From: Octopus vulgaris
Lineage: Eukaryota
DNA length: 64,000 nucleotides
NCBI GenBank assembly: GCA_951406725.2
Contig: OX597815.1
Coordinates: 193,006,001 to 193,070,000, forward strand
Direction of reading: 5' to 3'
Part shown: positions 2,310 to 36,000 of the stretch, piece by piece
Position numbering within the stretch: the first letter of the stretch is position 1
How the letters are laid out: the number at the start of each line of letters is the position of its first letter
Notes under the pieces: generated by a model
What the model saw: the letters and a program-made list of their open reading frames with translations, nothing else
The model's database searches: none
Told to the model about the DNA's origin: nothing
Position numbers and translations under genes: made by a program

Positions 2310-2715
2310 ACGAACATACATGCATACATACATACATACATACATACATACATATATATACATACATACATACATACATACATACATGCATACATACATA
2401 CATGCATGCATGCATACATAGACACATACATACATACATACTTACATACATAAATACATACATACATACATACATGCATGCATACATACATACATACATA
2501 CATACATACATACATGCATGCATGCATGCATACATACATACATGCATGCATGCATGCATACATACATATATACATACATACATAGATGCATGCATACATA
2601 CATACATACATACATACATGCATACATACATACATACATACATACATGCATGCATACATACATACATACATACATGCATACATACATACATACATACATA
2701 CATACATACATACAA
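2310..2715. repeat. (TACA/TGCA)n microsatellite
   Basis: Direct reading; source of the MYVC/HTYI pseudo-ORFs. Confidence 0.95.
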
Positions 2716-3257
2716 GCAAAAATACCTTGTTGTTAATGTTGAAATTCCAAGGAAGGAGTCTTAAATCTAGGTTAGAAACCGGCTTTTTCTCTATTGACAA
2801 TAAATCTTGAAATAAAACTGAACAATGACATACACACATGCATACACACGAAATATACGATGAGAAAGAAAGAGAAACAACAGAAAAAACCTCGTGTTTC
2901 CCATAACCCATCGATCCATCGATCCATCGATCCATCGATCCATCGATCCATCCATCCATCCATTCATCCCAAACTCACGAAAGACGTCTCCTTCGGGATA
3001 ATTTATTACAGTCAGTGTGTGACCACAAAATACCTACAGAACGCCTGAATTTTCAAATCTTGGCCTGGTGCCTTAATACTAAATATACCCAATCGTTTGT
3101 CTTATACAATATAATATTAATAAATTAGAAAATTTATGAAATACACGACTTTTACTAGTCATATGCATTATCTTTTGAACGAAAATTTGAATATTTATGG
3201 GTAAAATATACGGATATGAATAGAATTTCTTGCAAGGAATGTTCATATTTTACTTAC

Positions 3258-33000: not shown

Positions 33001-36000
33001 TGTCCAGTAGGAGGCCGATTCGAGGCTGAAGGGGTCATTAATGAGGCTATGGTGATACCTAGACCTGATATCCGCAAAAACAGTAATGTACAATCAAACA
33101 ACAATATTATTAGCAGATTAACCAGTTCTCATGCCAATACTGTTGCCACGCGCAGAGATAACAACCAGTCCAGGACTAGTATCACAGAGAGCATCACTGA
33201 GGACTCCGGTACCACTGCCACGAACAATGAACAAACCATAGATACAGATAGAGTGACCAGGCCCTCAATATATGTAACCACCAGTACAAACAACGCACCT
33301 AGAAATAATGACCTATCCAGCACCAGTGACTTGGAGGAGGTATCTACCGTTCCCAGTTTCGTTACCTCAGGAGATTGACCAAGTATTTATCTTCAACACC
33401 GATAGGATGACCAGCCCCGCACCGTATGTTACCAAAGGTACGAATAGGGCCACATATTATGTGTGGAAATATATTGGCTCTGCGAGTACTTCATTCAAGC
33501 GGCGTTTTCTTAACCACCAGCTACCGTTGTGAGTCCCAGAGAGATGCTTTGTCACGTCCCTGACCCACCATGTATGACATCCCTTAGATTAAGAGACCCC
33601 GTGTAATATCAGGTGGAAACTAATTGATCATCTGGGTCTTTATAATAATGGAAGTGGTCGTTGCAAGATCTGCATCGCGGAGAGAGCCAAAATTCTTAAG
33701 GGCTGTAAGAAACCTGGAACATTAAACAGCCTCACCAGATCGGGCACGGTAACGCAGCGGAGCTGCGGGCGAAGGCGGGCAACAAAAGGCGGACGTCCAG
33801 AGGCGGGCGTGCAGAGGCGGACGTCCAGATGCGGGCGAAGGCGAGCTTCAAAAGGCGGGCATCTGCTCTGCTCTGCTCTGCTCTGCTCTGCTCTGCTCTG
33901 CTCTGCTCTGCTCTACCCTGCTCTGTCCTGGATACATTTAGAAGTATTTTCTAAATGTATCCACTTCAAGTGTTACTTACTGGAAAATTGGATCCCTCTG
34001 TTTGCTAGTCAGGCGTCTTAGGGTCTATAAGGGTTTTCCACCTCTAATTCAGAGGTAAAAACCCGTCCTCATTAATGTCTTTCTTTTCTTTTTGCTAAGA
34101 CGTATCCCTCGATTTCTGAGCGCTTCCTCACGTCTGCAATATTTAAAATTTTGTATTTATATAGAGTTTGAAGAGCAGTCCATAAGGCTTTTGCTTTGTG
34201 GTCGCGAAGCCTTGGGTAACTCTATGTCTAAGATATAAAATGTTCGGTAAAATATATACATAAATATATACATATATATACGCATGCGTGTGCATATATC
34301 CTATATGTTAGGTGCGTTGAGTGCTCCTGTTACTATTTTAGTTCTGAGCAATCTCTCAGCCATTCAATGAATACAAGTTTATAAAATAAATCCCAGCCTA
34401 AATCATATATTTAACTCCAAAAACTGATATGTTTGACCAAAGTCTCCCAATGGTGGTTTCCTAGCATAGTCACACTTCAATGATTAAAACCAGTAAAACA
34501 TCAGGATATTTGGGTGTAGATCAGTAAAAATTAAAGTGAAGAGAACAAAATATACTTACAACAATAATTTCACGCCTTGGCTGCTGCTCCACAGGAGGCC
34601 GTGGTGGAGGGTGTTCAGATTCCACAACAAATACACATACTTCTCTTTGTACAGAAACTGTAAAAAAAGAAATACTCCATAAAGAATATTTCAAAATGTA
34701 CGTTCCTTATATCTATAAGTAGTGCACTTTCTGAAATGTTCAAATTCAATCATTCATCAACTGTTATATACTATTTGGTAACTCTATTTTTTCGCGTGAA
34801 AATTTGATTCTTCTGCAAAAAAATATCACCACTAGTTAAAATTAAATAAATAAAATAAATAAAATAAAAGACCTAATGTGGATTAACCATGTGTATGCGT
34901 GTGTGTGTGTATACGTGTGCGTCTGTGTGACTGCGTGTGTGCGTGCATGCGTGCTCGCATGGAATTTATATATATTAAACGCATAATTATTAGTTTGAGT
35001 CAAGAGTTTTTGTTTTCAAACTCTTATTATTAGCAATGTAGGTGCATCGGCACATTTAGTCACATTTAATGACGAATAAATACTTCCTTTATGGTATTAT
35101 GTTGTGCCTAGCAGTTTATATTAACTTTTATTACATGCCTTAGCATTTCACTAAATCATCCCTAAATTTCTATAGTAAATGTATACATATGCTGACAGAC
35201 GGATTTAGACGACCATCGGCTGTCTGAGCAGTTACTACTGATGATGCCTACAAAATAAGCGAAACTAGATTCTAGTCAGGTGATTCTAGAAACGGTCATA
35301 GGGCGGTTACCTCCCTGTTAGTATATGTATATTTTGCGCTCTTCTTACAGCACTAAGATATTACTTTGCATATATATATATATAAAACTGTAGTTGTGTG
35401 AGTGTCTGTCCCCTTCGATTTAGATTCCTAACTCCTCCCACATTTTGCGGTGCAGTTTAACCAAATTCGGGTATCTTATAGTCGTGATTCATATCGAGCC
35501 CGTCTGACTATTAGCGCACGTCAACGATGAGTCTACGATTTTAAAAATAATTTAACATCATTTTTTATTCCATTTTAATGCATAAAATGCATCGTATGTC
35601 GATGGCGGCGGAGTTGGCGTCCACGCTCAAAGCTGCACCTGTTTGCTTCTCCCCCTTCCCTCCCTCGTGAAGCTGTGGGGAAGGGAGTGTAAAGAAATCA
35701 ACGTCGTAATGCGTTGTGAAGGAAACCAGCGTTCTTTTAGAACAACGACTTCATGGCTTGAAGACACCAAAACAAAAATGGCTAAGAAAGCCCGAATTTA
35801 TAAGGGAAGTAACTCTCTAAAAATGCTTATATAGTTATTTCCCTTACAAACCCGAGCAACGCCGGGCAATACTGCTAGTATATAATATAATATAATATAA
35901 TATAATATAATATAATATAATATAATATATATATATATATAATATGACTAGATAACTTTCTTCCTTTATTTGTTTCAGTCATTTACTCTGCCGGAGCACC

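Follow-up and report, generated by a model that had tools for sequence, protein, structure and literature searches.

The introns of two neighbouring genes in a tandem array of Octopus vulgaris, here called A and B, were probably homogenised by repeated gene conversion while diversifying selection kept their exons apart. Both are minus-strand CD225/dispanin genes in and beside a stretch of 64,000 nucleotides (the window; G000:C2:193006001-193070000), which was analysed together with 800 kb around it, 864 kb in all. A family search identified many CD225-domain exons near the window, and a profile search of the 864 kb resulted in 26 matches to the first half of the domain and 21 to the second. 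The array contains 23 complete first-half exons and 21 second-half exons within 830 kb, and both halves are present in 21 genes, one of which has a premature stop. The earlier note on this DNA had described near-identical introns and highly divergent exons in A and B; the CD225/dispanin identity and the array of about 20 genes are additions to it.

The peptides quoted in that note are the first half of the CD225/dispanin domain (PF04505), for which B scores 53.3 bits and annotated A 61.1 bits, both above the curated cut-off of 27.1. The array genes share a common plan in which exon 1 has 10 coding nt, exon 2 is proline-rich, and the domain is interrupted by a phase-0 intron, which lies in the helix-helix loop in 21/21 genes with both halves; the loop-intron junction sequence is present in sequencing run X11 for B and for gene S. 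Judged from the sequence, the genes appear to encode two hydrophobic segments with a charged loop. The structure model of annotated A, with an off-frame N-terminus and a mean pLDDT of 63, is helical at the hydrophobic segments, and a Foldseek search with this low-confidence model gave no match at E<=0.001. PRRT1 is the best sequence match in the PDB (E 1.4e-4), database names are PRRT1-like (including that of P0001 of O. vulgaris, whose exact agreement with B also fixes the species), and the PRRT1-like (DSPD) traits of an additional N-terminal exon and a proline-rich N-terminus are present. The C-C motif of the first helix is CC in A and B; one of the first-helix cysteines is invariant (20/20 genes), most distal paralogs having a single C. 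The loop A-X6-A and the second-helix G (columns 52, 59, 70) are present in A, B, and C. The motif G-D and the N-terminal flanking D, which are conserved dispanin motifs and no absolute requirement, are absent from A (G-N and N) and B (G-E and N) and are both retained in C. The IFITM-type GxxxG loop motif is altered in A (GNTAA) and lost in B (GERDD), and is intact in C, in D, and in 11/20 genes overall. Because the genes are from an octopus and have four coding exons, and because GxxxG is lost in B and altered in A, the array is placed outside the IFITM subfamily (DSPA). The parts of the genes and the tracts compared below are collected in Table 1.

Table 1. Exons of genes A, B, and C and the compared non-coding segments. 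Positions are those of the window unless preceded by G000:C2.
Feature	Position	Strand	Evidence or remark
Gene A exon 1, coding part (ATG + 7 nt, phase-1 GT donor)	15534..15543	-	homology with paralog exon 1; no splicing seen in RNA
Gene A exon 2, proline-rich, internal repeat, one base over frame	6974..7141	-	sequence; O. sinensis ortholog P0004 in frame
Gene A exon 3, CD225 first half	3258..3368	-	PF04505, E 1.3e-8
Gene A exon 4	G000:C2:193002401-193002547	-	outside the window, 3.5 kb to its left
Gene B exon 1, coding part	43163..43172	-	exons 1-4 of B translate exactly to database protein P0001 (116 aa, PRRT1-like)
Gene B exon 2, short proline-rich segment	34560..34657	-	spliced to exon 3 in run X11
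Gene B exon 3, CD225 first half	31081..31185	-	profile match and X11 splicing
Gene B exon 4, CD225 second half and stop	23894..24031	-	loose end of X11 contig matches exon-4 start with one mismatch
Gene C exon 3, third paralog	57522..57632	-	CD225 match; C exons 1-2 lie right of the window
Gene C exon 4	56433..56600	-	CD225 match
Homogenised tract, A side (intron 3 start, intron 2, intron 1 end)	2179..8239	.	alignment
Homogenised tract, B side	30385..35368	.	alignment and read contigs
B intron 3 end, adjoining divergent exon 4	24032..24510	.	9% different from A (44/488 sites)
Decayed LINE-like sequence, A intron 2	3662..6229	.	common to B 31753-33786 at 93-98%
Island of high A/B divergence, intron 3	3019..3087	.	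as many as 12 differences in 40 nt; interpreted as a relic left unconverted
B intron 1 low-copy segment	39836..39939	.	colinear with A 14895-15000, 75% identity
B exon 1 and upstream region	43065..44432	.	97-99% to C; 93% to D over ~390 nt; ~73-75% to A

Beside the exon-3 donor, 1 of 77 intron nt differs (3181-3257 in A, 31004-31080 in B), and the adjoining 58 exon nt contain 16 differences; these counts and both quoted peptides were reproduced exactly. The 77-nt stretch is the best case, as the 13 aligned non-coding blocks range from 1.3% to 12.6%. Over all blocks, 230 of 3,980 sites differ (5.8%), an intron identity of ~94%. In exons 3 and 4, 40% of the nucleotides and 60% of the residues differ, the opposite of exon divergence equal to or below that of the flanking introns. 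Exon 2, which had been described as rewritten, is so in its first 14 codons, where 14/42 nt and 8 residues differ and no codon differs only synonymously, but not in its 3' 48 nt, which carry 4 substitutions and one extra base in A. The similarity between A and B begins in the last part of intron 1 and ends 25 nt beyond the stop codon, with the tract on the A side broken by the divergent exons, simple repeats, and insertions. The element in intron 2, which matches other array copies at 64-74%, is probably a LINE, judging from its reverse-transcriptase-like translated fragments. The A/B contrast extends to exon 4 and partly to the third copy C. It also recurs within the array, between J/K and L/M (11% in flanks vs 37-40% in exons) and in G/H (14% vs 28%). 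Exon distance exceeded flank distance in 123 of the 124 pairs that had 150 or more aligned flank sites (190 pairs in all), the flank distances coming from score-limited extensions that are biased low for short flanks.

Four lines of results say that the exons of A and B are older than their introns. Counting estimates gave a dS of 0.45-0.51 and a dN of 0.60-0.63, and pairwise codon maximum likelihood on 78 codons gave a best neutral distance of 0.5 with one omega or 0.25 with two classes (of the two-class fits, that for A/B was used and those for A/C and B/C were not). The intron value of 0.058 was rejected in all four A/B fits, with 2dlnL of 21-25 and 12-14 (two frequency sets). The comparison of dN, dS, and intron divergence that the earlier note had proposed contrasts a synonymous distance of roughly 0.25-0.5 with 0.058 in the introns. 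Codons encoding the same residue in A and B show 6 differences on 22 synonymous sites, a small count that departs from 0.058 with P 0.001 and from 0.09 with P 0.011. In four young pairs used as a control, 11/279 synonymous sites (3.9%) and 166/6,548 intron sites (2.5%) differ, a ratio of ~1.5; given the second P value, the A/B synonymous excess holds even at the young-pair ratio.

The intron differences between A and B are also clustered (variance/mean 1.86, with 0/5,000 permutations as high; 12 differences in 40 nt, P 0.002), and islands of 20-30% divergence stand beside identical runs of 170 nt. The young duplicate C/D is without such clustering (P 0.065 and 0.95). Exchange between paralogs is shown by islands of identity: B and D are 93% identical in exon 1 within flanks of 77%, and A and C differ by ~10% at the start of intron 3 and by ~25% in other flanks. 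A relic in intron 1, colinear between A and B at 75%, agrees with the lower synonymous estimate; with no full-length match in C or D, the B segment would mark the old A/B split. In addition, the O. bimaculoides protein nearest to these genes, P0003, resembles B (59% identity) more than A does (39%), its identity to A being 47%. That the duplication is old had been argued in the earlier note from loosely similar exon-1 flanks. The conclusion probably holds, but the argument is weak because the exon-1 region of B has been exchanged with the C/D lineage; being 97% identical to C and 93% to D, this region is a poor clock for A against B. The old split is better supported by the exon synonymous distance and the 75% relic. 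With this change in the age argument, homogenised introns combined with selected exons are the best-supported reading of the locus.

Positive selection was examined with site models (own code) on 20 paralogs, which gave an omega near 3 at 15-29% of codons. The set excluded R, which has a premature stop, Z and T, for which no exon 4 was found, U and F0, which have a partial exon 3, and one weak match (E 0.03). M2a was preferred over M1a with 2dlnL of 63 in the full set, 30 with core columns, 66 with free branch lengths, 22 without three long branches, and 15 for exon 4 alone, and M8 over M7 with 56 and over M8a with 52 (omega ~2.6-2.9 at 29% of codons); omega ranged from 2.6 to 3.7 across the models, and conversion itself can inflate such tests. 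For the exon 3 core alone, selection had a P of 0.054. Selected sites immediately precede the first helix, occupy the edges of the loop, and occur in the tail as well as in the second helix; motif positions with C, P, G, or A are conserved across array genes. Young pairs exhibit a local nonsynonymous excess, with 14 nonsynonymous differences in exon 4 of J/K vs 2.6 predicted from introns, and 17 vs 5.4 in L/M; pooled over the young pairs, dN over dS was not significant (Fisher P 0.24). Rates are spread across the array, S matching its O. bimaculoides counterpart at 88% and P at ~62%.

The principal alternative is that one event at ~6% divergence copied a block from exon 2 to exon 4 under a C/D-type exon 1 and was followed by a burst of positive selection. 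The similarity is indeed a single colinear block that ends 25 nt after the stop, exon 1 of B is C/D-like, and the exon 4 excesses of J/K and L/M illustrate how strong local nonsynonymous change in young pairs can be. P0003 would suit a gene from before the duplication in that 11 of its residues recur in A alone and 20 in B alone. Of the family 3' UTR, B has no more than 25 nt, which would be expected of a partial duplicate. However, a single young event needs an omega of ~15 or more, and the fit is still rejected, synonymous sites being 4-8 times too diverged. It predicts even intron divergence, and patchiness is seen. Nearly all of the change would also have to predate the split from O. sinensis, which is dated to 2.5 Myr, as compared with ~34 Myr for O. 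bimaculoides (bioRxiv 10.1101/2023.05.16.540928, as far as its available portion goes). In the exon 3 tree, A groups with C/D (support 95/80) and an A+B clade is not rejected (p-AU 0.16); with both exons the A+B clade has a p-AU of 0.50, and exon 4 alone joins A and B weakly (83/77). P0003 groups with B (87/69; alternatives p-AU 0.43), and a separate O. bimaculoides ortholog of A was not found in a crowded search that also missed P0003. Given the A+B clade that the trees do not reject, the P0003 placement, and the 3' UTR loss in B, a young duplication followed by a burst keeps some weight but is unlikely. Tree discordance was also considered as proof of conversion and was set aside, as the AU tests fail to reject A+B.

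A second alternative is that the exons are young and were overwritten by paralog tracts, or that a mutational process focused on exons changed them. Two or three positions differ in many codons, and conversion between paralogs occurs elsewhere in the array. Against this, distances of 36-59% separate the exons of A and B from each of 14 other tabulated paralogs, leaving no donor among them, genome searches (lower bounds) found none closer, and young pairs lack a strong synonymous excess; we regard this explanation as quite improbable. A still less probable one is that purifying selection on regulatory sequence holds the introns: the first 60 nt of intron 3 differ by only 17-18% between A and E, F, G, J, and O, whose exon 3 differs by 39-46%, and splice-related constraint there is plausible, but the A/B identity continues for kilobases across a decayed LINE and does not extend to C/D, whose alignable introns are mostly ~25% different.

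That the pattern stems from collapsed or cross-polished repeats is hardly credible, even though tandem near-identical units are error-prone, no contig among those listed spans a whole unit, and an indel error could account for the extra base in A. Three DNA-type runs with three organism labels yield contigs that differ from B by 0-2 where A/B substitutions number 20-26; one run may be the assembly's own sample. One 208-nt contig is of A type, and the base of A is present at 12/17 checked variant sites, one of them in a poorly aligned stretch. Annotated O. sinensis orthologs exist for both B (97%) and A (95% over the domain). In run X11, a 563-nt contig joins exon 2 of B to exon 3 across a GT-AG intron and continues into exon 4; although no run is recorded as RNA, this single run was taken as RNA on account of the GT-AG joint. 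With both intron types carried by independent runs and B spliced, a collapsed assembly is an unlikely source of the pattern.

The X11 contig of B also contains features of separate interest. Its 5' 117 nt are young LINE sequence instead of exon 1 (joint near window 34657-34659; L111-L115). The LINE has 49 pattern matches genome-wide, with copies 88-99% alike and a perfect AAG/GTAAGT donor at the joint, and is absent from the 864 kb analysed; it is likely a polymorphic insertion spliced into B. The spliced LINE has a stop in the CD225 frame just upstream, and exon 2 is without an ATG. The transcript differs from B at four coding positions (window 31146, 34587, 34611, and the exon 4 start), three of them nonsynonymous (H19Q and A50S, with an M-to-K change in exon 4), Q19 being the O. 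sinensis residue too, and four intronic X11 contigs among those listed show 3 differences in ~1,200 nt. The coding differences are a hint of protein polymorphism in B.

Gene A as assembled is out of frame. Because exon 2 is one base longer than the frame allows, exons 1-3 run into a stop in exon 3. The model of the O. sinensis ortholog P0004 is in frame and reads through both exon-2 repeats, so that a rescue of the frame in A by an upstream in-frame GC donor, which we also considered, appears superfluous. The frameshift reflects a loss-of-function allele of O. vulgaris or else an indel error; the read-table rows listed hold no entry for an insertion at the extra base. In the N-terminal region of A, 11/52 aligned residues differ from O. 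sinensis.

Returning to conversion and selection acting together, the following course of events is proposed. A and B would have split at ~25% neutral divergence, possibly before the 34-Myr O. bimaculoides split, and their introns would have been homogenised by repeated conversion long afterwards. Short non-allelic tracts may have been fixed freely in introns, and selection likely eliminated tracts reaching across exons and promoted amino-acid replacement in the exons. Once very different, the exons may also have resisted conversion mechanically.

This mechanism is already known, as the pattern matches the divergence peaks of opsins and RNase1, and the octopus array is an extreme, replicated invertebrate case of it. 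In the available portion of the account of primate red/green opsins and colobine RNase1, introns are homogenised and exons are kept apart with a sharp exon peak (PMC3924837). There the differences involve a few key sites, whereas in A and B they affect 60% of the residues and three exons, and unlike in those genes the octopus pattern recurs across several pairs of a 20-gene array. As in the opsin type, exon synonymous divergence exceeds intron divergence in A/B. The copepod GOT1 paralogs, as described in the accessible part of PMC3728101, are another invertebrate example of high-divergence islands amid ongoing conversion, but as a pair of metabolic enzymes they differ from a large membrane-protein array under positive selection. 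The tandem small serum protein array of the Habu snake, in the section available from PMC6609765, has intron distances of 0.05-0.065 and young pairs with KA/KS >1. It was read there as recent duplication with accelerated evolution, a rival interpretation against which the A/B synonymous excess argues. The octopus genes share PF04505, the loop intron, extra N-terminal exons, and a proline-rich N-terminus with the PRRT1-like dispanin type (PMC3282796, in part), from which A and B differ by much shortened N-termini and an absent G-D motif. The accessible part of the Aplysia account gives 10 proteins or 14 transcripts and reports no array or selection, as compared with ~20 tandem, fast-evolving copies in octopus. 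Vertebrate IFITMs have in common with the octopus genes the domain, clustered small paralogs, and a cysteine motif (PMC7665892; PMC11730294); in the available text they are a vertebrate two-exon subfamily (PMC3282796; PMC7665892), and the octopus genes have four exons. No report of an octopus dispanin array or its selection signal was found in searches of open-access literature.

According to the available parts of PMC11730294 and PMC7665892, vertebrate CD225 proteins regulate membrane fusion through SNARE binding (PMC11730294) and IFITM3 blocks virus entry (PMC11730294; PMC7665892). By analogy, the octopus proteins would be palmitoylated, sit in membranes, and modulate their fusion; the diversifying selection would be explained by a role in blocking fusion. 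Such selection in a tandem array makes defence the likeliest single guess for function, most likely with a pathogen or parasite as the agent. This fast-evolving array of ~20 genes may be antiviral, a role suggested only by analogy with vertebrate IFITM; nothing in the data points to a toxin. We tentatively entertain an octopus array of IFITM-like antiviral genes that arose independently from a PRRT1-like dispanin, with a pathogen arms race at the membrane-proximal N-terminal segment, second helix, and tail; in this possible scenario selection would hold the exons 40% apart while conversion erases the introns. If infection is the driver, cephalopod intrinsic immunity has a concrete candidate in the array; if the role is neural, it is a new cephalopod expansion of membrane-fusion regulators.

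Several further observations were made on the array and its surroundings. Genes P, Q, and R (G000:C2:193483421-193557915) are three near-identical copies, and exon 4 of R has a premature stop and a frameshift, with a 100-N gap just beyond. Gene S (G000:C2:193755201-193763994 and the 193704433-193706989 entry), spliced in RNA-like run X11, is the slowest-evolving member seen and may represent the ancestral function, with V as its neighbour type. Elsewhere in the genome, five CD225 genes (L001, L002, L003, L012, and L017) have the entire domain in one open frame without the loop intron of the array genes, which may reflect retroposition or intron loss. Together, C and D make up a tandem duplicate of 38 kb with 97-99% identity (window 43065-64000, L037-L041), with an extra 10.5-kb duplication that gives C a second exon 1-exon 2 module, and exon 2 of D is interrupted after ~10 nt. 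By eye, window 9095-11700, 19400-20675, and 26737-28330 contain what we take to be Helitron helicase-like fragments, and 9095-9765 matches 20005-20675 at 95% identity. Upstream of A exon 1, parts of A intron 1 occur again (window 12821-15359 vs 20686-22857) with 82-95% identity, as remains of further partial duplications; one of them resembles the upstream region of A and D at 71-77%.
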